Shown here piece after piece: positions 8,652-61,822 of a stretch of DNA of 64,000 nt. The position numbers and the translations under genes were made by a program. Source of the DNA: a virus; the IMG/VR virus record IMGVR_UViG_3300042453_004661, positions 1 to 64,000 of that record; one strand, given 5' to 3'. Numbering within the stretch: the first letter of the stretch is position 1; each line of letters opens with the position of its first letter. Under the pieces are notes generated by a model. It was not told the DNA's origin. It did not search any database and saw only the letters and a program-made list of their open reading frames with translations.

Positions 8652-9452
8652 ATGGCCCACATTAAGACAAAGCACTCAGAATTTGCTGTCGAGAGCCTGA
8701 TTAACGCCTCAAGAGCAATGAGAGAAGGAAGCCACGAAGAGGCCGAAAAGCATTTTGAAGCTGCAGACGCAGCCATCGGAAGGCATGTAGAGTACCTTAA
8801 CAGCATTGGTGAGACTGCAGAAGCAAATCATTCTAAGAACATGTATGAAGGCCAAAAAAGGGTAATGCGTAGTGCCCACAAGCTAAAAATTAAAGATGCA
8901 AAAAAGTCAGAGGCAAGCGTCAACCAAGTAGGTAAGGGCATATTCTTAAAGTCAGAATTTTCTAAACCAAAATCAACCCCATCAGGAAATCCACGGTACT
9001 CCTATAAGGGATTGCATGAACTTCATCCCGAGGACAGGCAGAAAGTTTTGGGAATGAGCGGAAGCCCATCCATGTATCCCGGGGCCGACCATCACAAATT
9101 TGTTTATCCTACCGATTCATCTGGTCGATTAGTTCATTCTCAAAGAATTTCAGCTCCAGCAGGACACGATTTCGAGGCTGCAAAAGCTTCTATGCAAGAA
9201 TCATCTGGTGGTATTAAGTATTCTGAAGGGCAAGGAGTTAGGGTTCATGATCCAGCCCATGAGCTTCACGGAAAACTAGGCCTAGTTCAATTGCCAAATC
9301 CATCATACCCCAATAAGGTTCAAGTCATGTTTGCTGGTGGCAGAAGAGAATTCCTGGACCAATCGAAGATTCAGCCGAGCGGATCAAAGATGGCAAAGGC
9401 TCTTGCCACAGTAATCAACATCAAATCGTACCTAGGTAAGAAAAAGATTTAA
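8652..9452 (+). CDS. His/Lys-rich hypothetical protein, candidate head-cargo protein
   Basis: Contains AKKSE, FLKSE and MAKA, plus an SH3/KOW-like C-terminal segment. Confidence 0.5.
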   Translation: MAHIKTKHSEFAVESLINASRAMREGSHEEAEKHFEAADAAIGRHVEYLNSIGETAEANHSKNMYEGQKRVMRSAHKLKIKDAKKSEASVNQVGKGIFLKSEFSKPKSTPSGNPRYSYKGLHELHPEDRQKVLGMSGSPSMYPGADHHKFVYPTDSSGRLVHSQRISAPAGHDFEAAKASMQESSGGIKYSEGQGVRVHDPAHELHGKLGLVQLPNPSYPNKVQVMFAGGRREFLDQSKIQPSGSKMAKALATVINIKSYLGKKKI

Positions 9453-9454
9453 CT

Positions 9455-10306: not shown

Positions 10307-10346
10307 TAGTAGACATTCTGCCAGATTTAGGGGATAATTAAATCGT

Positions 10347-11735
10347 ATGTTACCTAAGAATTTCACCATGATGTCGGCCCAAACAGGAAAAGATCATGAC
10401 CATCAGGCTCATGCTGGCCTTATGGCTGATATACATGCTTTAGGCTTAAAACATAAAGTTACTGAAATCAATGGAAAGTATGGATACCCAGAAAAGTCTT
10501 TGATGATAGAGCATAAGGGTCGTCCTCAAGACATTTCTGCATTAGACAATCTTGCCAGAAAATACAAGCAAGAGTCTGTTCTTCATTCTTCATGGGAACA
10601 AGGATCTAATGGCAAAGGCTCCCATAAGAATGAATTACGCTATACAGATGGCCGTCCTTCTGTATTTGGTAAAGGCTACAGAGTCAATCCAGAGGCTGAT
10701 GACTACTATAGTGACCACCCCAAGTTTGGTCGTATTCAAATGCATTTAGACTTTGACTCAAAAGAAGCTACAAAAGCAATTACTAGCCAGGGAAATTTGT
10801 CTATTCAAACTGCAGCCCCGGGCCCGGAAGTTCGCCCTGCCCCGCCAGCAATAGCGAAACCAGAAAAAACAGACAACCCTCCTAGGAAAAAGTTCAAAAA
10901 AGTTCCAGCAAATGCGCCGGAGACATCTCCTGAATCAAATGAGTCCCCAGCAAAGCCAGTAAAAGATCTTAACAAGACTATTCTCCATCAAGATGGCGAA
11001 ACCATGATTGACACTAAGTCTCAAGGGATAGCTATTTCTGCCTTGCCAAAATCAATGATTGCATGGGGAGTGACGCATATGGTCCCCATGAAATTAAATG
11101 AAGTAAAAGACTTGTCTATTGGGGATGCTCGTATTAAAATAGTTAAGAAGAGCCCGGATTTATATGCGGGATGGATTGAAAAAGAAGCCAATATTGGACA
11201 TAAGTTTGAGCGCCTTACCCTTCCACAGCTACTCATCCATCTTCAGAGCGCTCTTGAGACTTATGGCAGAGAAGATCAAGTTTTTGCAGTCCCTAGCAAA
11301 ACCGAGTCAGATTCTATTGAAGAAAAAATTCAACCAAAACTTCAAAAAAAGAACCTGACCGAAATAGGCAAAGCCATCTCTGATGCAATTGATGAAACAC
11401 CTGAATCTTCTGAGGCAGATCGTCAGGCTAAGATCTTAGAAAAGCTTGAAACTCTTAGGGCAAAGATACAGTCTGAAATTATCCCTTCTAAAGACCTTGC
11501 ACAAGGAATAGATGAGCCAGAAGAGTTTTGCTCTGCATGCGAAGCCGAAGCCGAAGAATGTTCATGCTACGAAGGATTAAGCGCACCAAGGCTAGAATTT
11601 GATGGCAAAAAGATCAAAATTTTCTTTAAGTCAGACTGGAGCCCCGAAGACAAAGACAATTTTAAGGATGACTTAAAGAAAAGAGCTGGTATAATCCTTA
11701 AGAAGAGGGAAGGCGCCAGGAAGACAAGAAAATGA
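10347..11735 (+). CDS. Multi-domain protein with an N-terminal SAM-lyase/DUF3293-like domain
   Basis: GKYGYPEKSLMI...LARKYKQESVLH in the first ~135 aa. A CxxCx6CxC motif lies near the C-terminus. Confidence 0.55.
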   Translation: MLPKNFTMMSAQTGKDHDHQAHAGLMADIHALGLKHKVTEINGKYGYPEKSLMIEHKGRPQDISALDNLARKYKQESVLHSSWEQGSNGKGSHKNELRYTDGRPSVFGKGYRVNPEADDYYSDHPKFGRIQMHLDFDSKEATKAITSQGNLSIQTAAPGPEVRPAPPAIAKPEKTDNPPRKKFKKVPANAPETSPESNESPAKPVKDLNKTILHQDGETMIDTKSQGIAISALPKSMIAWGVTHMVPMKLNEVKDLSIGDARIKIVKKSPDLYAGWIEKEANIGHKFERLTLPQLLIHLQSALETYGREDQVFAVPSKTESDSIEEKIQPKLQKKNLTEIGKAISDAIDETPESSEADRQAKILEKLETLRAKIQSEIIPSKDLAQGIDEPEEFCSACEAEAEECSCYEGLSAPRLEFDGKKIKIFFKSDWSPEDKDNFKDDLKKRAGIILKKREGARKTRK

Positions 11736-12919
11736 AAAAACCATTAAATCCAGTAGAAGTGCTTCGGGAGTTGCTCGGTAGAGTACAGGCCCGAAGGGCT
11801 CTTGAACAAGATCCAGAAACCCAAGAATCAATCGACCAAGTCCATGCGGCTGGCGGTGAAATGATGCCCGACTATAAGGGTAAAAGCGTATACATTTCAT
11901 TTGATGGCGATAATATTGGGAATGCAGTCGCTCGAGCCGAGAATATGGACGATGAGCAAACCCTTGCCCAGGTATCGCAAAAGATTCAGGCAGGGCAAGA
12001 TCTGTTTGTTAATTTTCTCACCCAACATCAGGGCAGGCTGATTCAGGCAGGGGGAGATGAAGGATTAGGAATTTGTAACTCAAACTGCCTTGTAGACCTT
12101 GAAGAATTCAGACAACAATACAAGGAATTAGTTGGAGCTACAGTTACCGTAGGGGTAGGCACAAAAATATCAGAAGCTACCAAGGCCAGGATGCTAGGCA
12201 AGCTTCGTGGAAAAGATCAAGTTTGCCATTTTGACGGATCAACAGAAAAAGAAATTGAGCTTAGAAGCCAAACAGAAGACCCAGAAGCCAAGAAGCTTGG
12301 CCAGGCTGGTCTGATTGGCGGTGTGCCTAAATTTGGGATTGATCAAGATCAGTCACAAGATCAGGACTGGCAACAAGACTATGACGCACCAGAGCAAGAA
12401 GAGTCGTCAGGCATTTCCGATCATGCAAGTCGATTTGGCGAAGCAGAAGACCCAGGCGTAGAAGACGAATACGATATGCCTTCAGGGCAAGAGCCAGAGG
12501 CCGAACAGCAGGCTCCTGACTCCCAAGATGAATTTGAAGACCCATGGGACCAGGCCAAGCATGAGCGAGAAGGCAGTAAGCCCCAATCCAAAGAAAGAAG
12601 GATTGTAGATAAAGAAACTGGAAGAGAATTTGTTCTTCATGGTCTAGACCACGGAGAGTCAGAAGAAGATTTCCAGCCAGAAATGCAACAGCCGGAGGAA
12701 GAAGAGCAAGAGCCTCAACAGGCCCAAGAGTCAGAAGAGCCCCAGCAAGAAGAGCAAGAGCTTTCTGATGAAGAAAAAGGATATGGGGACTACACTGATC
12801 TTCCTTTTGAAGAGCGTGATGATTTACAAAATCGATTGATTGCAGAAAAAATCGCCAAAGAAGAGGGTGTTAATCCAAATTTTCTTTATCTCGCCTCTAA
12901 AAAATTATCGAGGGATTAA
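11732..12919 (+). CDS. mCpol (minimal CRISPR polymerase)/GGDEF-like nucleotide cyclase with an acidic tail
   Basis: YISFDGDNIG...IQAGGDEG...VTVGVG...ARMLGKLRGKDQV. Confidence 0.75.
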   Translation: MKKPLNPVEVLRELLGRVQARRALEQDPETQESIDQVHAAGGEMMPDYKGKSVYISFDGDNIGNAVARAENMDDEQTLAQVSQKIQAGQDLFVNFLTQHQGRLIQAGGDEGLGICNSNCLVDLEEFRQQYKELVGATVTVGVGTKISEATKARMLGKLRGKDQVCHFDGSTEKEIELRSQTEDPEAKKLGQAGLIGGVPKFGIDQDQSQDQDWQQDYDAPEQEESSGISDHASRFGEAEDPGVEDEYDMPSGQEPEAEQQAPDSQDEFEDPWDQAKHEREGSKPQSKERRIVDKETGREFVLHGLDHGESEEDFQPEMQQPEEEEQEPQQAQESEEPQQEEQELSDEEKGYGDYTDLPFEERDDLQNRLIAEKIAKEEGVNPNFLYLASKKLSRD

Positions 12920-15427
12920 ATGGACTTTCGGGAGGCTGTTCGCAGACATCATGAGCATCTTAAAGATCCCACTAAAGAAAGTGGCAATGAATCTGCAGAA
13001 AATTTCATCAATATCCTACAAAGAGCAGAAGATCGCACACACCATGCATCCTCTCTTAGCTGGCTAAACGATCTTTTTCAAGATGGTCATCTATCTCAAG
13101 ATCAGCAAGATAGGATCATTAACCTTAAGCATATTCCTAAGACCAATCAATCCTCACAGCTCGTAGACGGCATAATGGAAAATATGCCTGATGAAAAAAG
13201 AAAACAAATACTTAACGACAAGTTAGGAATTACGGGCGGTAAAAAGATTCGTGATGTAGAAAAAGATCACGACTGGAATAACTGGGAATCCCCTCCAACA
13301 GGTGATGAATCCGATCCCTACGCAAGATTTTATAAAGGCATTGATTGGGAATCGTCAAAGCATCTTACGGATGATCAGGCCGAGCATATCAAGAGACATG
13401 GAAGCGTTGAGCAAAAGCTAAATCTATTTTCAAATCCACATATAGATCCAAGACATGGAATTGAAATGTGGAATAAATGGAGCGACAACGATACTCACCA
13501 CGGATACCATAGGCATCATTTATCAGATTATTTGATGCGCCATCAGGAAGATAACATAGAGGATGACATAGAAGATAGGGCTTATACAATAGCTCAAAAT
13601 CGTCTTCCAATTGATAAGTGGGCCAAAGAGACTTTGGCAAAAAATGGCTTAAAATATTTTAGACATAAAGATGAGCTTTTAAATCATATCAATGACAATC
13701 TAGACCTTTACGATACTGTAGGCCCAAATCCTGGATTCAATAAAGATGCCCCCGTAGACCCGGCTAATAATCCAGAAACAATAGATTACGCAGACCCCAA
13801 CAATCCTCAATCCAAGACTATTAACGATCACCCAAATCTTCCCCAGCTTCTCCAGCAGGCCGATAATCAGCTCATCAACACAAAAGGCTATCCTAGCGTC
13901 ATAGGGCAAAGAAGTGAAGGAATCCCAAAACTTCATGAGGGCGAATGGCATCATGATGCCGTAAGGGAAATGTCAAAAAATATTGCCGAAGACCTCCGTG
14001 AAGAAGCCATTTCTTCAGCTTATAAAAATGAAGACTATCTTCCAAAGCATCTCAGGGGCAAGATCTCTTCAATTAAAAATGAATTAACATCAAAATCTCA
14101 AATAGATACAAAAAACGCATTTGCCAACAACGGCTTAGATATTTCTAAATTTTCTTCAGATCATGAATACGCCCCTGGCTTGTACCATCTAAACATGCTC
14201 AAGGACCATACTGAAAATAATAAAGGCAAAATAGATCTAGGATCTATGGTCAAAAAATATCCGGACATGAAAGATGCCCTAAAGAGTGCATTCGGAGACA
14301 AGCAGTCATTGTCCTCAAAAGATATTGATTCAAAAATAAAATCTTTGCCAAAAACAAAATATTCAATTTCTGCAAGGAGCTGGGAGCCACAAAATCCTCA
14401 AAATCTTAACAGAAGAAATCAGCTTGTTTTAAGGCTAGAGCATACTCCCGAATCCATGGCCCAAATCAAATCAGATCCATCACTAGAAAATATATTCAAT
14501 AAGGTGCATAAGTCGTCAAAAGCTTCAGATCATCCTGTAGGGACAAACACGATAGGATGGGCAAGAATAGATACTTCCGACCCTTCTCATTGGGTAATAG
14601 ATGAGACTCAATCTGATTTTAGCGAATCATTGATTAGAACAATATCTGAAAATGAATACAATCCATCAAAGAGGCAGTCTATAGTAGATGGGATTCAAAA
14701 AATTAGAGACATTCATGGAAACTGGCAAGAAAATCTAATGAGCCATATTGTTGATTTGGCTAAAAAGCATGGGGTTGAAAAGCTTTCTATTCATACCCCG
14801 GAATCAAAAGCAAGTCAGCTTGGCGCCAGCAGAATCCATAGTGCGTATAGGGAAAACTATCAGAAAACCCCCAAGAGCATGGGATTCTCAAAAACAGAAG
14901 GCCTATCTTTGCCATTGACCGACCTTGGGAGAATAGCTTTTACTAAAAAAATCCCATACGATGATAAAGTAAGACAAGATACTCATTATTTTGCTATGGG
15001 CCATCATAGACAGCGATACCATGTACATAAAGCAATTGCAGATAGGATTAGATCAGAAAGCCCTGAAATTGCTGCCGAACACGATGAGACCGCAAAAAAG
15101 CATAAGATGCTTTTTTTCTCGCACCGAAGAAAAGGCCTACGAGTAAAGGCTCCGATTTTTATTGATAACCCACCAAACGATCTCAACGATAGAAGAAGAA
15201 GCGTATCATTTCATGAGCCTCCTCTTAACATGGAAGGGTTGTTAGCGTCAAAAAAAGATTTAAAAGAAGAACCTTCTGGTTTTGTAGGATATCATTCAGA
15301 CTCTATTGTTGATGGAAGCATGAAGCCCGAGTCTTTGCCAGCCCACACCCTAGAGATTGGGCAAAAAATGAAGAAATCAGTAAGGCTAGGGAAAATTCTA
15401 GCTCGTAAAATTATGGAGGCATTATGA
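12920..15427 (+). CDS. Large His-rich protein with a DETQSD motif domain, candidate internal virion/polyvalent protein
   Basis: IGWARID...WVIDETQSDF, with MKKS near the C-terminus. Confidence 0.45.
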   Translation: MDFREAVRRHHEHLKDPTKESGNESAENFINILQRAEDRTHHASSLSWLNDLFQDGHLSQDQQDRIINLKHIPKTNQSSQLVDGIMENMPDEKRKQILNDKLGITGGKKIRDVEKDHDWNNWESPPTGDESDPYARFYKGIDWESSKHLTDDQAEHIKRHGSVEQKLNLFSNPHIDPRHGIEMWNKWSDNDTHHGYHRHHLSDYLMRHQEDNIEDDIEDRAYTIAQNRLPIDKWAKETLAKNGLKYFRHKDELLNHINDNLDLYDTVGPNPGFNKDAPVDPANNPETIDYADPNNPQSKTINDHPNLPQLLQQADNQLINTKGYPSVIGQRSEGIPKLHEGEWHHDAVREMSKNIAEDLREEAISSAYKNEDYLPKHLRGKISSIKNELTSKSQIDTKNAFANNGLDISKFSSDHEYAPGLYHLNMLKDHTENNKGKIDLGSMVKKYPDMKDALKSAFGDKQSLSSKDIDSKIKSLPKTKYSISARSWEPQNPQNLNRRNQLVLRLEHTPESMAQIKSDPSLENIFNKVHKSSKASDHPVGTNTIGWARIDTSDPSHWVIDETQSDFSESLIRTISENEYNPSKRQSIVDGIQKIRDIHGNWQENLMSHIVDLAKKHGVEKLSIHTPESKASQLGASRIHSAYRENYQKTPKSMGFSKTEGLSLPLTDLGRIAFTKKIPYDDKVRQDTHYFAMGHHRQRYHVHKAIADRIRSESPEIAAEHDETAKKHKMLFFSHRRKGLRVKAPIFIDNPPNDLNDRRRSVSFHEPPLNMEGLLASKKDLKEEPSGFVGYHSDSIVDGSMKPESLPAHTLEIGQKMKKSVRLGKILARKIMEAL

Positions 15428-15648
15428 GAATTGGAAGATTAGAAATCGGAATTAGCAGAAAGCCAAGAACCAAAGCCATTGCATGGAGCCTAGATGTTTC
15501 ACTTACCAGGCCATCCTGCGGGTGCATCATGCTCGAGCTTGGGCCTATTCATATTACCTGGCTTTCTAGCGGTGAAAATGGATGCTATTCTTTTTCAATT
15601 TTTCACATTAAGAGAAAGAAGAAAGCCAAGAAGGGTAAGAAAAAATGA
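15424..15648 (+). CDS. Hypothetical protein
   Basis: SD ggagg; ATGA overlaps on both sides. Confidence 0.55.
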   Translation: MRIGRLEIGISRKPRTKAIAWSLDVSLTRPSCGCIMLELGPIHITWLSSGENGCYSFSIFHIKRKKKAKKGKKK

Positions 15649-16133
15649 AAAGCTTAAAAGGACAGCTTTTGTCGGATTTAACCCAGGTTGCTCATGATCT
15701 ATTTAAAAGCATCGATGAAAAAGGATGCGAATGCTCTCATTCTCAGGGCGATCTTCCGGATGATGAATACGAAGTATCTCTCTGGGATGATGGAACAGTA
15801 GAGGTCCTCCAATCTGACGATGAGGATCTCGATACCGCTCCTGTGTTCGAGGCTCTTTCTGATATGGGCTTTGAAGAAGATGAAGACGAGCCTCTCGAGA
15901 AGTTTAATTTCAAGTCTAAACATAAATCTAAAAAAGGTGGGCTAACAGAGGCTGGCCGTAAGGCATATAACAAGGCTACTGGCAGTAACCTTAAGCGCCC
16001 CCAGCCAGAAGGTGGGAAGCGTAAAAAGTCATTTTGCGCCAGGTCTGCTGGACAGATGAAGATGCATGGCATCAACTGTTCTAAGACCCCAGACAAAAGG
16101 GTATGCTTGGCTCGTCGTAGGTGGAAGTGCTAA
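15645..16133 (+). CDS. Acidic N-terminal region plus a DUF6321-like basic C-terminal domain
   Basis: GGLTEAGRKAYN...NLKRP...RKKSFCAR...RRWKC, preceded by PLEKF. Confidence 0.65.
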   Translation: MKSLKGQLLSDLTQVAHDLFKSIDEKGCECSHSQGDLPDDEYEVSLWDDGTVEVLQSDDEDLDTAPVFEALSDMGFEEDEDEPLEKFNFKSKHKSKKGGLTEAGRKAYNKATGSNLKRPQPEGGKRKKSFCARSAGQMKMHGINCSKTPDKRVCLARRRWKC

Positions 16134-16925: not shown

Positions 16926-16939
16926 AGTATAATAATCCT

Positions 16940-17857: not shown

Positions 17858-17889
17858 GCGTCTACACTAATAATGGGAGAATAAACTGT

Positions 17890-18120: not shown

Positions 18121-18132
18121 GGGGGAAAACAA

Positions 18133-19920: not shown

Positions 19921-19933
19921 TTGAGAGGTAAAT

Positions 19934-20224: not shown

Positions 20225-20225
20225 T

Positions 20226-20444: not shown

Positions 20445-20464
20445 TCGCATCCACAAAATGCAAC

Positions 20465-20494: not shown

Positions 20495-20499
20495 ATTTA

Positions 20500-44217: not shown

Positions 44218-44243
44218 CCTAGATAAGGTAAAATAGTAATAAT

Positions 44244-50233: not shown

Positions 50234-50242
50234 AAATAGTTT

Positions 50243-51562
50243 ATGAGCAAACTACCTCCATTTTTTTCTAAGACCCAAGACCTTCAAAAAGCCGAGGATG
50301 AGACTATCAATCCTACGCTTGGCCTTGAGACTCCAAAGAAAATCATCAAGCTTAAAGAAGGACACAATAAAGGCCGTCAGGCTAAGGTAGTAGCTGAAAA
50401 CTCCCAAGAATTTAAGATCGTCCCCAGGACCAATCAAAAACCATTTAAGGTAGCTGGGGGGCCAGCCGATACTGCTGGTCAAATTCTTGATGAAGCAAAT
50501 AGTCCAATTGTATGGGAAAAGAATCGTAAACATGATATTTTGGCCCCAGGTGGGATTCACAAGAAAGAACACGAAGAAAAAGTAAAGAATATCTACCAAC
50601 CTAAAAAGGCCGAGCCTAATTTTGTATTTACAAAAGACAATCACCACCAAGGCATCCCTCATGATGAAGATCAAAAGAATCTAATTCATGGCATTGATCT
50701 TCGTGAGATTAAAAAGCTTGGCGATGCGGGAGGCGACTCAGATGACCTTGGATGGACCGCCGAGTGGGCAGCTTGTGGTGTTGGCAAGAATAAAGCCGGG
50801 AAAAGCTGTCTCGTCAAGGGTAGGATGCCGGATGAATTTCTAGATAAAAATTCTGGCATTGGTCGAGAGATGGCGTCAGATTATAAGTTATTCAGTACGG
50901 CACAGAGAGAAGCCGTTTATTACAATATAGCAAAAGCATTAGGGCTTCATAAATACATTCCTGTTACATCTGTTGTCCACGATCAAACCAAGGCCCCTGT
51001 AAAAAACTTTAAGAGGGCCCCACAGGATCATGGCCAGGCTGGCAATCATTACTCTGTCATGGAAATGATTCCAAATGCCAAGCATTACTCGGGCCTCCCC
51101 TCACAACTCGGCACAATGAAGAGAGCCCATGACAGTGGGGACCTACACAAGCTTGGCCTTATGAATGCTTTTTTGTATAATACAGATAGACATGGCAAGA
51201 ACTTCATGTTTAGTGAAAATAACAATAATTTTCACCTGATTGACCATGGCCTTACTTTTGGATATCGTGGAAGGCCATTTGTTATGCCTGCCTATCTTAG
51301 GATCGCCCATCTCGAGCATCGGCTTCCTGATGAAATACATCCGGAAGCCAGAAACTGGATCAATAATCTCAATATTGATGACATAAAAAAAGAGCTAGAC
51401 TCCCACGACATACCTATTCAGCACAAAAGAGCTACATTGGCTGCAATTCGAAAAGCAAAAGAATCGATTGGTGGAGATCCAGAGAATAAAAGAGCGTTTA
51501 GCTCACATCTAAGAGAGATAAGTAATGCAGGATTAAGATCATTCCTTAGAGGAGATGATTAA
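50243..51562 (+). CDS. PI3K/PI4K-like (HipA-like) kinase
   Basis: REAVYYNIAKALG...IPVT, catalytic NTDRHGKN, and LIDHGLTF. Confidence 0.8.
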   Translation: MSKLPPFFSKTQDLQKAEDETINPTLGLETPKKIIKLKEGHNKGRQAKVVAENSQEFKIVPRTNQKPFKVAGGPADTAGQILDEANSPIVWEKNRKHDILAPGGIHKKEHEEKVKNIYQPKKAEPNFVFTKDNHHQGIPHDEDQKNLIHGIDLREIKKLGDAGGDSDDLGWTAEWAACGVGKNKAGKSCLVKGRMPDEFLDKNSGIGREMASDYKLFSTAQREAVYYNIAKALGLHKYIPVTSVVHDQTKAPVKNFKRAPQDHGQAGNHYSVMEMIPNAKHYSGLPSQLGTMKRAHDSGDLHKLGLMNAFLYNTDRHGKNFMFSENNNNFHLIDHGLTFGYRGRPFVMPAYLRIAHLEHRLPDEIHPEARNWINNLNIDDIKKELDSHDIPIQHKRATLAAIRKAKESIGGDPENKRAFSSHLREISNAGLRSFLRGDD

Positions 51563-53401: not shown

Positions 53402-53425
53402 TATTAGATTGGTAATATAAGGTGT

Positions 53426-56400
53426 ATGGCTATCCCGCCCAAAAAAATCTATACCCAGATGCAAAAGTCTGATTCAGATGGCCAGGCTCCTATCTCTTTT
53501 AATTTTAAAAGCCTTAAGCCGGAGCAGAAAGCAAAATTCCTTCAAAATCCTAATCTTCATCCAGATATACTTCATAAGTTAAGTGAGGATGATAATTTAA
53601 AGTTGTCAATAGCAGAGAATCCTAATACTCGCTCAGACACACTTCATAGGCTAAGCGATAGTGAGTATGGGATTGTAAGGGGTGCAGTAGCAGAGCATCC
53701 AAATACCCACCCAGACACGCTTCATAAGTTAAGTGAAGATAGGGATGATGATGTGAGGAGGATGGTAGCAGAGAATCCCAATGCCCATCCGGATACAATT
53801 CATAAGCTGAGTGGGGATAAGAATTCGCGTGTAAGGGAGGCAGTAGCAAAGCATCCTAACACCCATCCAGATATACTTCATAAGTTAAGTGGGGATAATT
53901 CTTTTATTGTAAAAGGAGCAGTAGCGAGAAATCCTAATGCCCATCCAGACACGCTTCGTAAGTTGAGTGAAGATGAGGGGGATTGGTCTGTAAGGGAGGC
54001 GGTAGCAAAGCATCCTAATATTCATCCGGACACGCTTCATAGGCTAAGTGAGAGTGAGTATGAGACTGTAAGGGAGGCAGTAGCAAGGAATCCAAATGCC
54101 CACCCAGATATACTTCATAAGTTGTGGAAAGACAAGTGGCCAAGAGTAAGATCTGCAGTAGCAGAGCATCCTAATACCCGCTCAGATATACTTTTTGGAT
54201 TATGTTACGATAGGGATTTTGAAGTAAGGGCTGGGGCAGCAAGAAATCCAAATATTCGTCCAGCTCTACTTGATAAGTTAAGTAGGGATACTCATTGGCC
54301 TGTAAGACAGGCAGCAGCAGAGCATCCTAATAACCATCCGGATATGCTTGATAAGTTAAGTAGGGATGTGGAGTGGGATGTAAGAGAAGCAGCCCGTAAA
54401 AACCCTAACCATCCAAATAACCAGATGAAAAAGTCTGATTCAGATAGCCAGACCCCTATCTCTTTTAATTTTGCAAACCTTAAGCCGGAGCAGAAAGCAA
54501 AATTCCTTCAAAACCCCAATGTTCATCCTAATGCGCTTCATGCTTTAAGCGGGGATGAGAATCATGAAGTAAGATTTGCAGTAGCAAAGCATCCTAATGC
54601 CCATCCAGATACACTTCATGGACTAAGTGAAAGAGAAGATGAGAATGAAAGTATAAGGCAGGCAGTAGCAAAACATCCAAATACCCATCCAGACACGCTT
54701 CATAAATTGAGTAAGGATGACGATTTAAAGCGGTTTGTGGCAATTCACCCAAATACCCATCCAGACACGCTTAATAGGTTAAGTAAAGACAAGTGGTCAG
54801 GAGTAAGAAGGGAGGTAGCAAGGAATCCAAATGCCCATCCAGATCTACTTCATAAGCTGAGCGAGGACAGGGATGTGTATGTAAGGGAAGGGGCAGCAAG
54901 GAATCCAAATGCCCATCCAGATCTACTTCATAAGTTAAGCGGGGATGAGAATCATGAAGTAAGATTTGCAGTAGCAAAGCATCCTAATGCCCATCCAGAT
55001 ACACTCCATAAGTTGAGTGGGGATAGCTTCGACTACAGCATAAGGGAGGCGGTAGCAATTCATCCCAATACCCATCCAGACATACTTCATAATTTAAGCG
55101 AGGATGAACATCTTTATGTAAGAGATGCAGTAGCAAAGAATCCAAATACCCGTCCAGATACTCTTCATAAATTGAGCGGGGATGAGGATGTAGATATAAG
55201 ACAGATAGTGGCCAGGAGTGCTAATGCTGGTCCAGAAACACTTCATAAGCTGAGTGGGGATAGGTCTTTTATTGTAAAAATGGAAGTGGCAAGGAATCCT
55301 AATACTCACCCAGATACACTTCATAAGCTGAATGGGGATGAGTCTTTTACTATAAGAGAGGCGGCCCGTAAAAACCCTAACCATCCAAATAACCAGATGA
55401 AAAAGTCTGATTCAGATAGCCAGACCCCTATCTCTTTTAATTTTGCAAGCCTTAAGCCGGAGCAGAAAATAAAATTCCTTCGAAACCCCAATGTTCGGCT
55501 TGATCTACTTCAGCAGTTAAGTGAGGATGAGGATGGAGATGTAAGGCAGGCAGTAGCGAAACATCCTAATACCCATCTAGATATAATTCATAAGTTGAGT
55601 GGGGATGAGCATAGCGGTACAAGGGCTATAGTAGCAAGGAATCCCAATATCCGTCCAAATATACTTCATGCATTAAGTCACGATAGGGATTTTGAAGTAA
55701 TGGCTGGGGCAGCAAGGAATCCAAATGCACATCCAGAAATACTTCAGAGGTTGAGTGAACATGAACATCCGTATGTAAGAATAGCGGTAGCAGAGAATCC
55801 TAATACCCATCCAGATATACTTCATAAGCTTAGTCAGGATGCGTATCAGCCTGTAAGAATGGCGGTAGCAAACCATAAAAATACCCACCCAGATATACTT
55901 AATGTGCTGAGTGATGATAAGGACGAGCTTATAAGAGAGGGGGTAGCAAAGAATCGCAATACCCATCCAGATACAATTCATAAGCTGAGTGGCGATAAGG
56001 ATGAGGATGTAAGATATGCGGTAGCAAGGAATCCAAATGCCCACCCAGATATACTTCATAGGCTGAGTCAAGACGATAATAGGTATGTAAGACAGGCGGT
56101 AGCACGACATCCCAGCACCCATCCAGACACGCTTCATAAATTAAGTGGGGATGAATTTTCTAGCGTAAGACAGGGATTGGCAATGAATCCTAATACTCAT
56201 CCGGATATGCTCAATAAGTTGGGCGGGGACAGAGATGGAGATGTAAGAGAAGCAGTAGCAAAACATCCAAATACCCATCCAGACACGCTTCGTAGGTTAG
56301 GTGGAGATTTAGATGTAGATGTAAGATATGCAGCCCTTCAACATCCTAACCATCCAAATAACCAGATGAAAAAGTCCGGTTCTACTCAGTTTGAAGACCC

Positions 56401-58762
56401 ATGGGACCAGGCTAAATACGATAGGGAAGAAGAGCAGTCTCTTGATAAAGCAGAATTCCTCACCGATGAAGATATTGCTTCAGATGACAAGGCTGATGGC
56501 ATTTATTTAATACCCCATAGCCATGAAAAAGATAGGATTGCTTCTTCAAGCAAATTTCATGGCACAGAGCTTAAGAGCGCATCAACACTATACAGGCATT
56601 ACAAGCATACTCCCCACCATCCTGTATCTCTTGGTCTCAAGTATTTGATTCATAGAATAGAAAATGCAAAAGACTATGACGAGGGGAATGCAGAAGAGCT
56701 AGATAATGATTTCTTGCAATTACATCAAGCGGGTAAGGCTTCAGAGAAAAACGGGTGGGTTAAATCTAGAGATTTGCAAGAATTTTATGAGAATCATGGC
56801 AAAAGACTAATTCCCCAGCTTATTGGTCACAAAAATAAGCTAGCAGAAGTCATCATGAAGCATCATCCGGAGTCAGTTGTCTATATTGATGGAAAACCGC
56901 ATGTAGCATTGACCAGGGGTCTAAATACTAAGATGCCAACCCAAGACCATGCATTGGCTAGCTATGCAGATAAAGACAATACTGGATTTGGCAGTCATAT
57001 GCATCATAGGTTTGTACCTCTTGATAATCTTTGGTATTCATATGCGTACGGCCCATACCCAGCTACAAGCCCAAGTTTTGGAAACGAACACGAATATCTT
57101 GTTTCTCCCCATAAGATCGTACCAGCAAAAAAAGAAGATATTAAAGAGATAGCCGGGAATAGAACTCTGTCACATGGATATATGCCTAATCTGGAAAGTG
57201 ACATAATAAATAACAAATTGTCTTTGGAAGATTTGCGTAAGGTTCATCCAGCATTGCTAGGAAGGGTCGTAATGAATTCTCTGGGCAATCGAGACCAGGA
57301 AACTCATGAGAAAGTTATTGATCATGTTTTGGACAAATTAGATCAACAAATTAAGTCTCCCAACATGAATAGCGACCTGGTCGGTTCCTTGCTCAATTCT
57401 TTGAAAAATGGCACTCTCAATACCTCAAAAGACATGACACATAGGGTTATACAAAAGATATCTGAAATTAACCATCGAGATCATGGGCATGTCTTGGCAA
57501 ATGATGCAACTTCCAAAATGAATGAAATAATAAGTAGGGAAGCGGGCGGCCTTCACGAAAAGACCTACAGAACTGCATTCGATCATGCGAAGTCGGCTTT
57601 TACATTAGAGGCTCAGAATTTAATGTTTGGCCTTGCTCAAAATCCATTCAGTCCTCAAGATGTGCTTCATGAATTATCCAATAGCGAAGTGCCTGGCATG
57701 AAAGAAAAAGTGGCAAGCAATTCAAATACTCATTCCGACACGCTCCATATCCTGTCTAATTTAGAAGACAATAGAGTTAAGCTTGCTGTTGCAGATAATC
57801 GATCTACTCACCCCAATACACTTCATGATATGGTAAAAAAGACAAAAACTCCAAAATCAATACACGGAACTTTGCCTCTTCCGGAAGATCATGATAATCT
57901 TAAGTTGCATAAAGTAATTGCTACCAATCCAAATACAATGGATGAAACTCATCATTTATTGATGGATAAATACCCATACTCAAGCCTTCCCGCACAAGCG
58001 ACTGATATCGGCATGCGTATTGCTTCTAATCCAAATATTTCAGATTCAATGATGAATAAGTTAAGCGTGAGTAGTTCGCCTGGAGTAAGGCGGAATATTG
58101 CCAGTAACTTAAAAACTAATGCAGATCTACTCCATAAACTAAGTGAAGATAATGATGATCATGTTAAATTCGCAGTAGCAAGCAATGAGAATACCCGCTC
58201 AGACACACTTCATAAACTAAGTGAAGATAGATATAATTTTGTAAGAACTGCAGTAGCAGAGCATCCCAATACCCATCCAGATACTCTTCATGCGATGAGT
58301 GAAGATCCAGTTGATGGAGTAAGGCGATCAGTAGCGGGAAGGTTAAATACTCGTCAAGATACGCTTCATAAAATGAGTGAGGATAAGTGGGCAGGAGTAA
58401 GGCAAGAGGTAGCAAGGAATCGCAATGCCCATCCAGACACACTTCATAAATTGAGCAATGATGAATATCTTGGCGTAAGAGAAGTGTTAGCAAGAAATCC
58501 AAGTATCCGCCAGGACACGCTTCATGTTTTAAGTAAGGATAAGGAAGATATGATAAGGCGGTCGGTAGCAAATCATCCTAATACCCATCCAGATACACTT
58601 CATGAGCTTAGTCAGGATTATAATGAGTTTGTAAGGGGGTCGGTGGCAAAAAATCCAAATACTCACCCAGACCTACTGGATAAGCTAAGTAAAGATGAAA
58701 GTCATGATGTAAGATGGGCAGTAGTAAATAATCCTAACTATAAGCCTAAGAATATGGGATAA
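53426..58762 (+). CDS. LRV/HEAT-like repeat polyprotein with an internal ADP-ribosyltransferase domain
   Basis: About 46 repeats of ~26 aa ([NH]PNTHPDxLHKLSxDxxxxVRxAVAx). ART motifs LTRG, LASYA and NEHEYLV. Confidence 0.8.
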   Translation: MAIPPKKIYTQMQKSDSDGQAPISFNFKSLKPEQKAKFLQNPNLHPDILHKLSEDDNLKLSIAENPNTRSDTLHRLSDSEYGIVRGAVAEHPNTHPDTLHKLSEDRDDDVRRMVAENPNAHPDTIHKLSGDKNSRVREAVAKHPNTHPDILHKLSGDNSFIVKGAVARNPNAHPDTLRKLSEDEGDWSVREAVAKHPNIHPDTLHRLSESEYETVREAVARNPNAHPDILHKLWKDKWPRVRSAVAEHPNTRSDILFGLCYDRDFEVRAGAARNPNIRPALLDKLSRDTHWPVRQAAAEHPNNHPDMLDKLSRDVEWDVREAARKNPNHPNNQMKKSDSDSQTPISFNFANLKPEQKAKFLQNPNVHPNALHALSGDENHEVRFAVAKHPNAHPDTLHGLSEREDENESIRQAVAKHPNTHPDTLHKLSKDDDLKRFVAIHPNTHPDTLNRLSKDKWSGVRREVARNPNAHPDLLHKLSEDRDVYVREGAARNPNAHPDLLHKLSGDENHEVRFAVAKHPNAHPDTLHKLSGDSFDYSIREAVAIHPNTHPDILHNLSEDEHLYVRDAVAKNPNTRPDTLHKLSGDEDVDIRQIVARSANAGPETLHKLSGDRSFIVKMEVARNPNTHPDTLHKLNGDESFTIREAARKNPNHPNNQMKKSDSDSQTPISFNFASLKPEQKIKFLRNPNVRLDLLQQLSEDEDGDVRQAVAKHPNTHLDIIHKLSGDEHSGTRAIVARNPNIRPNILHALSHDRDFEVMAGAARNPNAHPEILQRLSEHEHPYVRIAVAENPNTHPDILHKLSQDAYQPVRMAVANHKNTHPDILNVLSDDKDELIREGVAKNRNTHPDTIHKLSGDKDEDVRYAVARNPNAHPDILHRLSQDDNRYVRQAVARHPSTHPDTLHKLSGDEFSSVRQGLAMNPNTHPDMLNKLGGDRDGDVREAVAKHPNTHPDTLRRLGGDLDVDVRYAALQHPNHPNNQMKKSGSTQFEDPWDQAKYDREEEQSLDKAEFLTDEDIASDDKADGIYLIPHSHEKDRIASSSKFHGTELKSASTLYRHYKHTPHHPVSLGLKYLIHRIENAKDYDEGNAEELDNDFLQLHQAGKASEKNGWVKSRDLQEFYENHGKRLIPQLIGHKNKLAEVIMKHHPESVVYIDGKPHVALTRGLNTKMPTQDHALASYADKDNTGFGSHMHHRFVPLDNLWYSYAYGPYPATSPSFGNEHEYLVSPHKIVPAKKEDIKEIAGNRTLSHGYMPNLESDIINNKLSLEDLRKVHPALLGRVVMNSLGNRDQETHEKVIDHVLDKLDQQIKSPNMNSDLVGSLLNSLKNGTLNTSKDMTHRVIQKISEINHRDHGHVLANDATSKMNEIISREAGGLHEKTYRTAFDHAKSAFTLEAQNLMFGLAQNPFSPQDVLHELSNSEVPGMKEKVASNSNTHSDTLHILSNLEDNRVKLAVADNRSTHPNTLHDMVKKTKTPKSIHGTLPLPEDHDNLKLHKVIATNPNTMDETHHLLMDKYPYSSLPAQATDIGMRIASNPNISDSMMNKLSVSSSPGVRRNIASNLKTNADLLHKLSEDNDDHVKFAVASNENTRSDTLHKLSEDRYNFVRTAVAEHPNTHPDTLHAMSEDPVDGVRRSVAGRLNTRQDTLHKMSEDKWAGVRQEVARNRNAHPDTLHKLSNDEYLGVREVLARNPSIRQDTLHVLSKDKEDMIRRSVANHPNTHPDTLHELSQDYNEFVRGSVAKNPNTHPDLLDKLSKDESHDVRWAVVNNPNYKPKNMG
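53459..56377 (+). repeat. Three ~970-bp macro-units, each with 11 ~78-bp repeats
   Basis: QMxKS boundaries at 53459, 54425, 55397 and 56366. Linkers 54392-54524 and 55364-55496 are nearly identical. Confidence 0.9.
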
Positions 58763-58819
58763 TTGCATTTACCCCCGTAAGGGTATAATGTTCTTGTCGG
58801 CACAAAATCAATAACCCAT

Positions 58820-61800
58820 ATGTCAAAATCCCATAAAAAACAAGATGTTAAGAATGCAAGCTCGGGAAATCCTAGTTCTGGTATGCCAGAAAAGGTCCCA
58901 GGCGGTCTCTCGTCCGGCAAAAGCCCCAAGGATTTTGATCAACAGAAGCTAGCTGACGGTATCAAGGTCGAAATGGAGCATACGACAGATAAGGACATAG
59001 CTCAAGAGATTGCTATGGACCATCTGAGCGAAGATCCTGACTACTACAAGAAGCTCAAGGCTATTGAGGCAAAAAAGTCCGAACCACTTTCAAAGCCATA
59101 CGCTTCCGAGGCTCAGCGTCGATGGGCTCATACCCCGGCTGGCAAAGAAGCCCTGGGTGGAGAAAAAGCTGTAGCTCATTGGAATAAGGAGTCAAAAGGT
59201 AAGAAATTGCCAGAGCGGGTAGAGAAGTCCGAGACCGCACCATCCGAAGCTCCTTCACAAGAAGATCTATCTCAGCAATATGAAAAGCTATTGCATAATC
59301 ATTATCCAAAAGACTTTGTCGATACCGTAATCCGTGGAGACAAAGCATCTGCCCAATTTCTGGGAGGTCCGATATCTCATGAAAAGCATGGCAATTTGAT
59401 TGTCCGATACGCCGAAGGCCCGAAGAGTCTTGGCATTATGGGGCTATTTTCTGCTACTGGTCGTATCCGCCCATCGGAAGCAGAAGGCATTAAGAGCTGG
59501 CTTGGCCGAGCAAGATCGTCGTTAGATCAGGGCAAAGATGTTTATGTCAGCTTAAATCATCATTCTGAGCCTATTTTTATGAGGGCTCTCAAGGGTGGCG
59601 ATTTTGACTCAGAAACATTGTCTTCTCACGATTTTCCCTGGGGTACTTGGAAAACAGTAAAAGTTAGTAAGAAAAACATGGCTAAATCTGAAGACTTTGA
59701 AAAAGGAGCTAAGGGCGATTGGCAAAAGGAAGGCTACACAATCCACTATACCACCCCCAAAACAAGGCGAGCTTTTGCAACAAAAATTGGCTCACCACTT
59801 GTGGAAGATGGGGCAGTAAATGGCGATCACACTATTTGGGCTGTAAGCCCATCTGGAAAGAAGGTTGGGCATTTAGATATCGATAACCACCAAGATAATA
59901 GCATGTTTGCTCTTGAGACAGAAGTTGATGAAGATCATCAGAGAAAAGGCCTAGCCTCGGCCATGTACCGATTGGCAGAAGAAAAAACGGGAAGAAAATT
60001 CTCACCAAGCCCTCATCAAACAGATGAAGGTGCAGCTATCTGGAACCAGCCTAACCGCCCATTTGGTAAATCTGAAGATTTTGAAAAGGCGAGAGAGCCA
60101 GAGCCGGACTTTGATGTTGGGGCTGTATCAACGAGTAGCGATACCGAAAAAAAGCCCAAAGCTTCTGAATTAAATATCACGGTCAAAGGCAAGCCTGTTG
60201 CTCCTAATCTAGACATCAAAAATGCCGTTAAGTCTGAATTTGATCACAAAAACGGAATACTCCATACACCCAGAGGAAGCTTTCAGTTAAGGTTTCCAGA
60301 AAAAGGTGACAAGAAATATAAGAAGATTTTGAATTCCCCAGAAATTCAAGAAGTCCATAGAAGAGCTATGAAGAATTGGTTTAGGCTCAACGAAGTAGTT
60401 AGAAATGGCGGGCATCTTCCTGACGAGGTTGTGGCTCATGCAAATTTATTTTCTATCTTGTCTGCCAATACACCAGTTCCACAAACTGAACTTCTTTACT
60501 CAAGATTAAAAGATGTAATGGGACAACAAGGGCTTGATCCTAGAACAAAGAAATTTGGAGAAGCATTTTTGCCTGGCGGTGAAGGCCGGGAAGGCTGGAG
60601 AGCATCCGATAGCCCAACAGAAATGCCAGAACACTCGAGGGAATACTGGGAAGGAAGAGCAAAACCCACTATCACACAAATGAGGGCCAGTAAAGGAACT
60701 GGAAGGCAGGCCGGAGATATTGTTAAGCTCGGGTCTCTTGATGCATTTAGTGACAGGATTCAAAAATACCCACAGGCCCATAGATATATTGCAGATCTAG
60801 TTGCTCAGCATGGTGGGGATACCCAAAAGATCGTATCCCAGATGATGGCCGATAGATCAAATGGAAAACTCCCCGATGATCATCCAATGCAAATTGGCGT
60901 AGGCCTTGGATCTAAGACTTCACGATTTGCCGTATCAATGATGGGCGGAGGCCAATCTGTTGTCCCTGATACCCATTTTGTAAGGCACATATTTGGACTT
61001 GATTCAAATACGGATTCAGATACAATCCACTATCTCAAGAATGTTTTGTGGAAATACAAAAATCATCATATTTTGAACTCATTGGATCAATTTTACAGAG
61101 AAAATCATCCTGCCGTAGATTTTGTCAAGAATGCATACTTTGGCGGTAAGGATGATCCTCATTCGGTATTTCCGGCATTCTGGCTACACTGGCTAGGCAT
61201 TTCTCCGCACGAAAGAGAACAAGGGATTGGCAAGCCAGAAGGGGCCAAAAACATTAGCGATCATACTCCTTACTTCGACACCGCAAACGAGATCCTTGAT
61301 AGGCATGGGCTTGGAAATATTATTACCAAGTCCGAAGACGAGGAAAGACCACTGGTTCATAGAACTGCAAGTGCAGTTCATGAAATTGCCGAGAAGCTCG
61401 GAACATCTTTTGCTTCTATGATTTACTACTCCCATATCGTTCCTAAGCTTTTGGGAGAAACAACAGAAGATCATCATACGCATGCGATAGATGTAAATAA
61501 AGCCAAAAAAGTTCTTAAGCTTGCTAAGAGCCTGCTTATGGAAAAAATTGGTCAAATGACTCACAATACCCAGCCACTCTCTGTTGGGCATGATGTTTTT
61601 CAAAAAGAACTAGAATCTATCATGGGCGGATTCTCTGTTGACAACGGAGGACTTAGGTCAATGAATGACAAGAAAAAGTCTGAAGATCGTTCAAATTCAT
61701 TGAGTCAAGTTCCCAAAAAACACAGAAAGAAATTTGAAAAAGCGATGGACGAGGCCAAAAAGAAAGACAGCGTGTATGGCAGGCTCGTAATGCTTAAGTC

Positions 61801-61822
61801 CAAGATTAAGGATAAAAAGTAA
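58820..61822 (+). CDS. Polyvalent protein with DUF5661-like, GNAT and HhH-GPD DNA glycosylase-like domains
   Basis: GIKVEMEHT...IAMDHLSEDPDYY; EVDEDHQRKGLASAMY; GLGSKTSRF...VVPDTHFVR. Confidence 0.75.
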   Translation: MSKSHKKQDVKNASSGNPSSGMPEKVPGGLSSGKSPKDFDQQKLADGIKVEMEHTTDKDIAQEIAMDHLSEDPDYYKKLKAIEAKKSEPLSKPYASEAQRRWAHTPAGKEALGGEKAVAHWNKESKGKKLPERVEKSETAPSEAPSQEDLSQQYEKLLHNHYPKDFVDTVIRGDKASAQFLGGPISHEKHGNLIVRYAEGPKSLGIMGLFSATGRIRPSEAEGIKSWLGRARSSLDQGKDVYVSLNHHSEPIFMRALKGGDFDSETLSSHDFPWGTWKTVKVSKKNMAKSEDFEKGAKGDWQKEGYTIHYTTPKTRRAFATKIGSPLVEDGAVNGDHTIWAVSPSGKKVGHLDIDNHQDNSMFALETEVDEDHQRKGLASAMYRLAEEKTGRKFSPSPHQTDEGAAIWNQPNRPFGKSEDFEKAREPEPDFDVGAVSTSSDTEKKPKASELNITVKGKPVAPNLDIKNAVKSEFDHKNGILHTPRGSFQLRFPEKGDKKYKKILNSPEIQEVHRRAMKNWFRLNEVVRNGGHLPDEVVAHANLFSILSANTPVPQTELLYSRLKDVMGQQGLDPRTKKFGEAFLPGGEGREGWRASDSPTEMPEHSREYWEGRAKPTITQMRASKGTGRQAGDIVKLGSLDAFSDRIQKYPQAHRYIADLVAQHGGDTQKIVSQMMADRSNGKLPDDHPMQIGVGLGSKTSRFAVSMMGGGQSVVPDTHFVRHIFGLDSNTDSDTIHYLKNVLWKYKNHHILNSLDQFYRENHPAVDFVKNAYFGGKDDPHSVFPAFWLHWLGISPHEREQGIGKPEGAKNISDHTPYFDTANEILDRHGLGNIITKSEDEERPLVHRTASAVHEIAEKLGTSFASMIYYSHIVPKLLGETTEDHHTHAIDVNKAKKVLKLAKSLLMEKIGQMTHNTQPLSVGHDVFQKELESIMGGFSVDNGGLRSMNDKKKSEDRSNSLSQVPKKHRKKFEKAMDEAKKKDSVYGRLVMLKSKIKDKK

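Follow-up and report, generated by a model that had tools for sequence, protein, structure and literature searches.

That prohead proteases cut head-internal proteins at short motifs is already known, as are the concept of the polyvalent protein and the suggestion that such proteins are processed by a peptidase. In phage T4, gp21 cuts after [L/I]-x-E in gp23, the scaffold, the internal proteins IPI-III and Alt; cleavage in phiKZ and SPN3US takes the form A-x-E, and HK97 gp5 is cleaved after a lysine. The capsid protein Cps of Listeria phage A511 is reportedly cut at a Lys-Ser bond, which a literature search did not confirm. For phiKZ and SPN3US, mass spectrometry has located cuts by the prohead protease (gp175 and gp245) at a short motif in head-internal and ejected proteins, the portal and the protease itself (PMC10052503), and in capsid maturation of the HK97/D3 type the head protease, of the His/Ser type, is enclosed in the prohead (PMC12749128). 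Polyvalent proteins, as described by Iyer, Burroughs, Anand, de Souza and Aravind (2017, PMC5512222), are long phage proteins in which 2-15 unrelated domains of effector type are joined and whose genes lie among those of the virion. The available portion of that article cites the packaging of T4 Alt, proposes that polyvalent proteins are packaged and injected, and suggests that, as the virion assembles, they are processed by the assemblin-like peptidase domains that such proteins contain. Here we examine candidate polyvalent proteins of an uncultured phage (IMG/VR record IMGVR_UViG_3300042453_004661) whose modules meet at a short lysine signal, [LIVMF]-x-K↓[S/A]-[E/D], in which the arrow marks the presumed cut. 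The window analyzed is bases 1-64000 of a single 124,585-base contig, all coordinates are window positions unless stated otherwise, and nearly every gene in it lies on the + strand.

Sequence comparison makes it probable, in our judgment, that these are head-packaged polyvalent proteins cut after lysine by a prohead protease. Genes 50243-61822 and several of the head-completion block 8652-16133 would encode polyvalent cargo of a Mx1-like myovirus, and the products would be carried into the prohead. A prohead protease encoded past the contig end would cut them after Lys in the signal above, which would also direct trimming of the capsid protein, the portal, the scaffold-like protein and the protease itself. 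The released modules would be three LRV cassettes, an ART-like module with conserved R, S and ExE residues (R-S-ExE) together with a fourth LRV array, DUF5661, GNAT, an HhH-GPD DNA-glycosylase-like domain, a HipA/PI3K-like kinase and an SLT-like module, and these would travel with the DNA into the host. Packaging is suggested by fusions and gene context in relatives, and cleavage by the motif pattern; injection and effector roles are proposed purely by analogy with T4 Alt, the SPN3US ejection proteins and the P1 Dar proteins.

An earlier note on this DNA had described a looser motif, x-x-K-[S/A/G], at the domain junctions of ten named proteins. Every string that it quoted lies where it was placed, but the loose motif is not enriched: counts of K[SAG] are at or below those of shuffled sequences in most named proteins (observed against per-protein shuffles, 16 vs 22.5 in the LRV protein 53426-58762, 9 vs 13.1 in the 51563 protein, 9 vs 9.2 in the kinase and 15 vs 14.3 in the 12920 protein). 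The loose motif was also considered as an N- or C-terminal tag and rejected, as near-end sites are present in dozens of unrelated open reading frames (ORFs). Unlike it, the sharper form [LIVMF]-x-K-S-[E/D] is enriched. Across the 130 ORFs of the contig, [LIVMFA]-x-K-S-[DE] occurs 21 times against 8.9 +/- 2.9 after shuffling, and 0/500 shuffles reach 21. Four named proteins hold 12 of these 21 strict sites, namely 8652 (2), 10347 (1), the LRV protein (3, all copies of one duplicated junction) and 58820 (6). The 58820-61822 protein contains seven KS[DE] where 1.2 are expected (0/300 shuffles reach 7), and KSE shows no excess in the 120 ORFs other than the ten named (8 vs 4-10 for permutations). 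Tail proteins of the contig carry no strict KS[DE] site, apart from one 1104-aa protein. That protein (contig 67393-70707) is head-decoration/tail-fiber-like, and YF[ST]K↓SEFINS stands in it twice, within a duplicated unit; these two sites are probably unrelated to the cargo system.

The behavior of the loose motif favors the explanation that the motif arises by chance from a composition rich in Lys, Ser and Glu. The strict motif contradicts that explanation: KSE exceeds its own permutations, P3 is hydrophobic, the shuffles fall short of the observed count, and the excess is replicated in two independent sets of homologues and in 44 related loci. We consider chance a very improbable account overall; it holds only for 12920, 15645 and 32518, whose sites, counted in the earlier note, are not distinguishable from random occurrences.

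The joints are most readily followed in the 58820 protein, whose predicted pieces and junctions are as follows.

58820..61822, + strand: 1000-aa polyvalent protein (Pfam DUF5661 E 6.6e-12, GNAT E 2e-4)
58820-59077, + strand: predicted piece 1-86, DUF5661
59069..59083, + strand: junction AKK↓SE (K86↓S87), immediately past the last DUF5661 helix
59078-59227, + strand: predicted piece 87-136
59219..59233, + strand: junction VEK↓SE (K136↓S137), within the low-confidence segment 113-145
59228-59686, + strand: predicted piece 137-289
59678..59692, + strand: junction MAK↓SEDFEK (K289↓S290), left border of the GNAT cassette
59687-60070, + strand: predicted piece 290-417, GNAT cassette
60062..60076, + strand: junction FGK↓SEDFEK (K417↓S418), right border of the GNAT cassette
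60071-60232, + strand: predicted piece 418-471
60224..60238, + strand: junction AVK↓SE (K471↓S472), start of the HhH-GPD domain
60233-61330, + strand: predicted piece 472-837, HhH-GPD glycosylase-like
61322..61336, + strand: junction ITK↓SE (K837↓S838), in the sole disordered loop of the HhH-GPD domain model
61331-61819, + strand: predicted piece 838-1000

Besides the six junction lysines (K86, K136, K289, K417, K471 and K837), KSE follows K953, with a non-hydrophobic P3, and LAKS occurs at 901. With DUF5661, GNAT and the HhH-GPD fold, this protein has at least two unrelated effector-type domains, as polyvalent proteins do, and the ends of BLAST alignments on it cluster at 83-92, 136-145, 285-293 and 416-424, which correspond to K86, K136, K289 and K417. 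The KSEDFEK pair does bracket a GNAT domain, as had been proposed, since residues 290-417 contain the Pfam GNAT match at 332-389. This assignment scores 22.0 bits for Acetyltransf_1 against a cut-off of 20.7, and the best Foldseek rows are all GNATs (probability 1.00, E 0.014). The word NRPFGKSE at the end of the domain recurs in many homologues. The AlphaFold model of the whole protein is weak (mean pLDDT 60); even so, where pLDDT drops below 50, in segments that cover 36% of the residues, five of the seven KS[DE] sites are found inside or adjacent (binomial p 0.06).

A search with the 58820-61822 protein returned 50 proteins, most of which join DUF5661 to varying sets of domains: NUDIX, GNAT, PI3/PI4-kinase, ParB, SAM-lyase, ART-PolyVal, ddrB-ParB, InPase and, once, a portal domain. 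Among the 48 non-self homologues, KSE is found 79 times and its five permutations 28-43 times each. Glu follows KS in 79 cases where 30.5 are expected, a hydrophobic residue (L, I, V, M or F) fills P3 in 77 of the 104 KS[DE] sites (22.9 expected), and Gly and Lys are preferred at P2. A second set, 106 independent cluster representatives carrying the R-S-ExE module, contains the motif 130 times against 39.5 +/- 6.2 after shuffling (maximum 57 in 100 shuffles), and Lys is the sole enriched P1 residue. Motif lysines fall at most five residues from a BLAST alignment end in 43 of 78 cases, as opposed to 1229 of 4787 other lysines (Fisher p = 6e-8). The portal match is a metagenome protein of 780 aa (P0038) that carries DUF5661 at its C-terminus behind two K↓SE sites; because of this arrangement, DUF5661 looks like a cleavable cargo module and not an anchor. 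A literature search found no paper on DUF5661, and a viral-contig scan with the whole 58820 protein found no relative.

The earlier label 'glycosylase' is borne out at the level of fold: residues 472-837 form an HhH-GPD DNA-glycosylase domain by structural modeling, with the activity itself a prediction. The AlphaFold model of residues 473-883 has a pLDDT of 89.2 and a pTM of 0.83, and its only disordered stretch, model residues 362-371, contains K837↓S838. A VIA-align comparison superposes it on the 8-oxoguanine glycosylase Tm1821 (Z 14.4, rmsd 3.4 A, 207/209 residues); the top 23 rows are HhH-GPD superfamily glycosylases throughout, and Foldseek agreement with the fold is weak. No Pfam family matches the domain even at E 10. 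In 18 of 18 sequences the hairpin lysine (G-x-G-x-x-K-T/I) and the aspartate of P-D-T-H-x-x-R are kept. K837 is at least 90% conserved in these sequences, which reach down to 36% identity; the loop around it varies in length and sequence, with K-[S/T/A/N]-E in 16 of the 18 and K-S-E in 11. Elsewhere the domain is joined to mCpol, GGDEF, SAM-lyase-like, DUF6321, GNAT and kinase domains, and each of these partners is a separate gene in the window.

The second large protein consists mainly of repeats.

53426..58762, + strand: 1778-aa repeat polyprotein (Pfam LRV E 9.4e-152), with predicted pieces propeptide 1-14, LRV/HEAT cassettes 15-336, 337-660 and 661-984, and spacer 985-1008
53459..53473, + strand: MQK↓SD (K14↓S15), putative N-terminal propeptide cut
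54425..54439, + strand: MKK↓SD (K336↓S337), joint of cassettes 1 and 2
55397..55411, + strand: MKK↓SD (K660↓S661), joint of cassettes 2 and 3
56441..56455, + strand: LDK↓AE (K1008↓A1009), which comes after MKK↓SG at K984 and precedes the R-S-ExE module
56576-57169, + strand: R-S-ExE module (about 1051-1248), which with the fourth LRV array makes up piece 1009-1778

MKK↓S thus occurs three times in this protein (K336, K660 and K984), with MQK↓S (K14) before it and LDK↓A (K1008) after it. Overall identity among the three LRV cassettes is 54-59%, but it is 80-90% over the first 30 residues past each joint, and the LRV arrays and the R-S-ExE module amount to at least two unrelated domains in one chain. 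The earlier label 'ART' for this module is putative: R-S-E ADP-ribosyltransferases of the Alt / cholera-toxin type have a conserved Arg, Ser-x-Ser and Glu-x-Glu on an ART fold, and here R, S, E and E (the ExE) are invariant in 42 homologues, but no Pfam family matches even at E 10. In these 42 homologues the module co-occurs with kinase, NUDIX, LRV, mCpol, DUF5661, GNAT and ART-PolyVal domains. Residues 1009-1400 gave no usable match in a protein Atlas search, and megablast of the gene against phage records gave none. A 13-residue word, FEDPWDQAK[HY].RE, is common to the LRV spacer (~56390-56431) and the mCpol protein (~12533-12574) and occurs nowhere else in the sets examined.

Together, these comparisons with relatives support the earlier description of the big genes as modular polyvalent proteins, and they bear out the placement of the motif at module junctions for the strict form, which lies at borders in 58820-61822, 53426-58762 and their homologues, but not for the loose form. 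The domain network expected of polyvalent proteins appears in the Pfam domains of 50 + 35 homologues. As for gene context, the genes lie between the baseplate and fiber genes, and homologues lie in the head block of Mx1 and of loci L007 and L014. An alternative explanation is that the motif marks an uncut seam between exchangeable modules, serving as a conserved linker, as a word for recombination, or as a tag for packaging or docking, and that the products work as intact multidomain enzymes. Several observations are in keeping with such a seam. The two KSEDFEK-coding stretches are near-identical direct DNA repeats, and a natural variant that is ~99% identical to the 58820 protein (P0002) has lost exactly the intervening DNA, the 128-aa GNAT cassette between the KSEDFEK words. 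Likewise, the polyproteins of L014 and L015 differ by a single 183-aa module flanked by two sites. Finally, some polyvalent proteins, N4 virion RNAP, ArdC and TraC1 among them, are transferred unprocessed according to the portion of Iyer et al. available (PMC5512222). What the seam leaves unexplained includes the conservation of K-S-E in the K837 loop amid variable neighbors and length, and, more broadly, the distribution of the signal over the head proteins of relatives.

These head proteins are accessible through Myxococcus phage Mx1. By PHROG and Pfam scans the contig comes from a contractile-tail phage, a myovirus, with DNA polymerase and terminase near the contig end and two landmarks in the window.

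18133-19920: tail sheath (PHROG/Pfam)
41680-50033: baseplate proteins (PHROG/Pfam), with fiber genes downstream

Mx1 is the nearest named relative (sheath identity 34%), and the head-completion block is syntenic with its own, genes 7355, 9455, 11732, 16134, 16940 and 10347 each having a Mx1 counterpart; tblastn with 16940-17857 gave no match. The contig is truncated and stops one partial gene past the large terminase (contig end 122183-124585). This last partial gene matches the Mx1 gene that sits between terminase and portal, and next in order in Mx1 are the portal, a 1239-aa 'putative prohead protease', a scaffold-like 290-aa protein and the capsid protein. Because the portal, protease, scaffold and capsid genes lie beyond the contig end, the motif check on capsid and protease was made on relatives. 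A capsid gene spanning both contig ends was considered and rejected: the ORFs at the two ends are not in frame with each other and bear no relation to the Mx1 capsid protein. At 1-763, the window starts inside the first ORF, which encodes a fiber-like repeat protein.

A metagenome scan with an alignment of the central domain yielded 44 loci. In each of the 19 capsid proteins among them, a variable stretch of 10-14 residues at the N-terminus leads into hydrophobic-x-K↓A-[LMV]-E-[AG]-G, and in the Mx1 capsid protein 14 residues ending in L-R-K precede AMEAGNFNA.... The earlier expectation of the same motif at the capsid N-terminus therefore agrees with 19 of 19 relatives, but the contig itself has no capsid gene. 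Other loose sites are scarce in the capsid proteins, with 2 in 8760 aa where about 21 are expected. Observed over shuffled counts of [LIVMF]xK[SA][DE] are 57/3.6 in scaffold-like proteins, 21/2.6 in portals, 88/17.5 in protease proteins, 20/3.1 in cyclase-like proteins, 5/0.6 in polyproteins, 2/2.0 in terminases, 0/2.0 in capsid proteins and 21/13.2 in unclassified proteins, an over-representation of 5-16 fold in the scaffold-like, portal, cyclase-like and protease proteins. Scaffold-like proteins have up to nine loose sites (hydrophobic-x-K-[S/A]) per ~300 residues, and in 8 of 11 portals a site lies at most 70 residues from the C-terminus. In Mx1, 21 of 30 sites lie in the head block 5597-39282, and the total of 30 compares with 15.9 +/- 3.9 expected (counted over positions 1-161,999 of the 169,621-base record). 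A maturation-protease signal would be expected to look like this in sequence, with many sites in the proteins that are broken down or trimmed within the prohead, a single site on the capsid protein and no excess in the terminase. A recombination word does not account for the same peptide signal at the capsid N-terminus, nor for the density of sites in scaffold-like proteins, the C-terminal portal sites or the avoidance of the motif inside capsid proteins, and we judge the uncut seam unlikely.

The protease proteins of the relatives connect this signal to the domains of the window. The earlier note had suggested looking for a prohead protease elsewhere in the genome; none is on the contig, but relatives encode one fused to homologues of the window's domains. 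Behind its protease domain, the Mx1 protease protein carries a homologue of residues 450-878 of the 58820 protein (E 3.4e-68), and its C-terminal part is a homologue of the 50243 kinase (E 1.6e-16). Seventeen of 27 further central-domain homologues (P0051-P0077) match the N-terminal domain of the Mx1 protease protein; one of these fusions, P0051, has a central domain 61% identical to that of the window. H40 and S123 are invariant in 17 protease proteins of relatives, and the sole family match of the protease N-domain is PHROG 1028, 'head maturation protease', over residues 13-59 (47 residues, E 4.9e-6). The capsid word AMEAGNFNA also follows F-A-K at residue 239 of the Mx1 protease protein, and it recurs behind the protease domain of 10 of the 12 related protease proteins examined. 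In Mx1 (L006 13002-16721) and P0061-P0077, the first ~30-70 residues of the mature capsid protein are copied behind the protease domain (K↓A-[LM]-E-A-G-x-Y-N-A-A-P-x-x-L...), and such a copy may be how the protease is built into the shell. One protease-glycosylase fusion, the 1422-aa P0074, contains an intein (Pfam Intein_splicing E 3.9e-9).

Several observations weigh against cleavage by a prohead protease in the head. The capsid site reads K↓A-x-E rather than K↓S-E, and the capsid comparison draws on relatives that are only 30-60% identical; neither blastp nor tblastn finds a homologue of the Mx1 capsid protein, portal or protease N-domain on the contig. That N-domain has no Pfam protease match in Mx1 and 17 relatives and no sequence match in the PDB. 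Many of the sites counted are homologous or inherited, so that the counts give too high a figure for independent events. In the AlphaFold model K289 falls within a predicted helix of modest confidence, no homologue of the LRV protein is present among the head-module sets examined, and the large polyproteins are located past the baseplate genes, outside the head block.

The last of these points bears on another explanation, in which cleavage occurs but the proteins are not packaged in the head: they would associate with the tail or baseplate, or stay in the cytoplasm, and another phage or host protease would cut them. The position of genes 50243-61822 between baseplate and fiber genes fits this, sequence searches place the prohead protease in no Pfam protease family, and the contig encodes an S8 subtilisin-like protease. 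The latter, at 5854-6573, lies among virion genes, has D-T-G, H-G-T-H and G-T-S motifs and begins with a signal or lipoprotein-like peptide; as judged from its sequence, it should act outside the cytoplasm because of this signal peptide, and it was set aside as the cutting enzyme for that reason. Against non-head processing, homologous polyproteins are head-block genes in Mx1, L007 and L014, the domains are fused to the head protease or portal, and strict sites are lacking in the tail proteins with the one exception given above. We find this explanation rather improbable, and head-packaged polyvalent proteins cut after Lys by a prohead protease remain the reading we prefer.

A broader proposal joins all of these elements, and we advance it tentatively, with slightly less than even confidence. 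The cleavage code hydrophobic-x-Lys↓Ser/Ala-Glu/Asp would define the whole head-cargo proteome of Mx1-like phages, readable from sequence alone. Cassettes (kinase, GNAT, ART-like, cyclase, HhH-GPD and LRV binders) would be chained in polyproteins or onto the protease, swapped by recombination at the junction-coding words, cut in the prohead and injected as a pre-transcriptional takeover or anti-defense kit, with the tandem LRV copies setting dose in a polyubiquitin-like manner.

Two neighbors of the large polyproteins extend the pattern.

50243..51562, + strand: 439-aa HipA/PI3K-like protein kinase (Pfam PI3_PI4_kinase E 9.3e-6, HipA_C E 2.9e-5)
50282-50296, + strand: LQK↓AE of the kinase (K16↓A17)
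51563..53401, + strand: 612-aa three-module protein, with modules 1-96, 97-341 (SLT-like, ES motif) and 342-612
51842-51853, 52577-52588 and 52616-52627, + strand: loose joints of the three-module protein, LEK↓G at 94, FKK↓S at 339 and LQK↓S at 352

Both Pfam scores of the kinase are under the curated cut-offs, but the protein is widely conserved. The Mx1 kinase has LQK↓A at the equivalent place, and nearly all of the 42 BLAST matches of the kinase among related proteins are protease-fusion or polyvalent proteins. The modules of the 51563 protein align separately, each with a different polyvalent protein, P0010 (2-87), P0017 (93-196) and P0003 (339-581, E 1e-38), and the alignment ends coincide with LEK↓G and FKK↓S. 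Its earlier label 'lysozyme-like' is matched by an SLT-like profile (E 1.7e-7 in a database of the 130 ORFs) but by no Pfam family.

The remaining named genes belong to the head-completion block or lie downstream of it.

8652..9452, + strand: 266-aa head-module protein with no family assigned; strict sites AKK↓SE (8898-8912) and FLK↓SE (8943-8957)
10347..11735, + strand: 462-aa head-module protein with a weak SAM-lyase-like N-terminus; one strict site, FFK↓SD (11622-11636)
11732..12919, + strand: 395-aa mCpol (minimal CRISPR-polymerase-like cyclase) protein with a long acidic tail (Pfam mCpol E 1.7e-13)
12920..15427, + strand: 835-aa protein with no family; loose site MKK↓SV (15368-15379) near the C-terminus only
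15645..16133, + strand: 162-aa protein with a C-terminal DUF6321 (Pfam E 5.3e-19); loose site LFK↓S (15699-15710) only
32518..33483, + strand: 321-aa Lys-rich protein; loose sites only, including LEKA, at chance level

The earlier label 'SAM lyase' for 10347-11735, taken as the T3 SAMase type, does not stand by its own score (S-AdoMet_lyase 17.4 bits against a cut-off of 28, E 0.0043); a homologue, P0008, matches the same family at E 1.6e-5, still under the cut-off. Both halves of the 10347 protein are found inside polyvalent or head-module proteins of relatives. The mCpol protein has zero motif sites; mCpol is fused to the HhH-GPD domain in P0059, P0060 and L017, and cyclase-like head-block proteins at related loci are rich in the cut motif. 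DUF6321 is a module of the polyvalent proteins P0034, P0045 and P0052. Four of the ten named proteins (8652, 12920, 15645 and 32518) lack statistical support, and for three of them homology adds little or nothing. The 8652 protein has no homologue in any set examined, and its membership in the cargo system is tentative. Membership is not supported for the 12920 protein, which has no Pfam or PHROG family and whose homology consists of one 70-aa match to P0022, or for the 32518 protein, which has no family and no homologue in the sets examined. No fusion links 8652 or 32518 to prohead proteins, and none links 12920 beyond the 70-residue match. At E 10, Pfam gives no ART, lysozyme or other family in the middle of the LRV protein or in 12920, 8652, 32518 and 51563. 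Elsewhere in the window, at 22967-23833, lies a homologue of beta-glucosyl-HMC alpha-glucosyltransferase (PHROG 842, E 1.3e-51). It hints at hypermodified phage DNA, which could bear on the target of a packaged DNA glycosylase.

If the code holds, sequence would suffice to predict head cargo across a large clade of phages of soil and sediment, most of them uncultured, and each joint would be an exact prediction for mass spectrometry. Polyvalent proteins would then be true polyproteins matured by the capsid protease, a link between the literatures on prohead proteolysis and on the effectors of inter-genomic conflict. The HhH-GPD DNA glycosylase, the mCpol-type cyclase and the LRV repeat arrays would be activities that are not known as phage head cargo, a DNA glycosylase being an unusual one. 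Mx1, which is in culture, has the same signals, and experiments could be done on it directly. In the literature passages searched, we found neither a hydrophobic-x-K↓S-E junction code common to capsid, scaffold, portal and cargo in Mx1-like phages nor a fusion of a head protease with an HhH-GPD domain and a kinase. A term search of the genome note on Mx1 returned nothing.

Compared with known HhH-GPD glycosylases (Ogg2/AGOG, EndoIII, AlkA and MutY), the phage domain shares the fold, the hairpin lysine and the conserved aspartate, but it has ~150 extra residues and sits in a polyvalent protein or is fused to a head protease. As in the polyvalent proteins of Iyer et al., homologues here carry ART-PolyVal (PF18760; E 2.8e-16 in the Mx1 polyprotein), ddrB-ParB (PF18763) and InPase (PF18823). 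Unlike in those proteins, the protease domain here is N-terminal or separately encoded, and MuF, the usual head anchor, is not detected; the word 'linker' does not occur in PMC5512222, and the available portion of it describes no junction motif. The likeness to the HK97/D3 type lies in the invariant His and Ser of the relatives' protease (H40, S123) and in the proposed cut after Lys, as in HK97 gp5 and A511 Cps, but there is no S78 sequence match, and the propeptide has 10-14 residues instead of a 100-residue scaffold domain. The sites of phiKZ and SPN3US, which are unrelated phages, have a different logo, favoring valine at P4 and serine at P1', and 13 of 14 remove N-terminal propeptides instead of separating modules (available portion of PMC10052503). 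A parallel to the proposed system may also be drawn with the T4 prohead core. The two would share short N-terminal propeptides on cargo. They would also share a three-residue hydrophobic-x-charged signal on the capsid protein, the scaffold and injected enzymes. They differ in P1, which here is Lys and not Glu, and in that the relatives' protease is fused to cargo domains, with membership in the gp21 (S77) family not backed by a sequence match; cargo here is chained in polyproteins with many internal sites.

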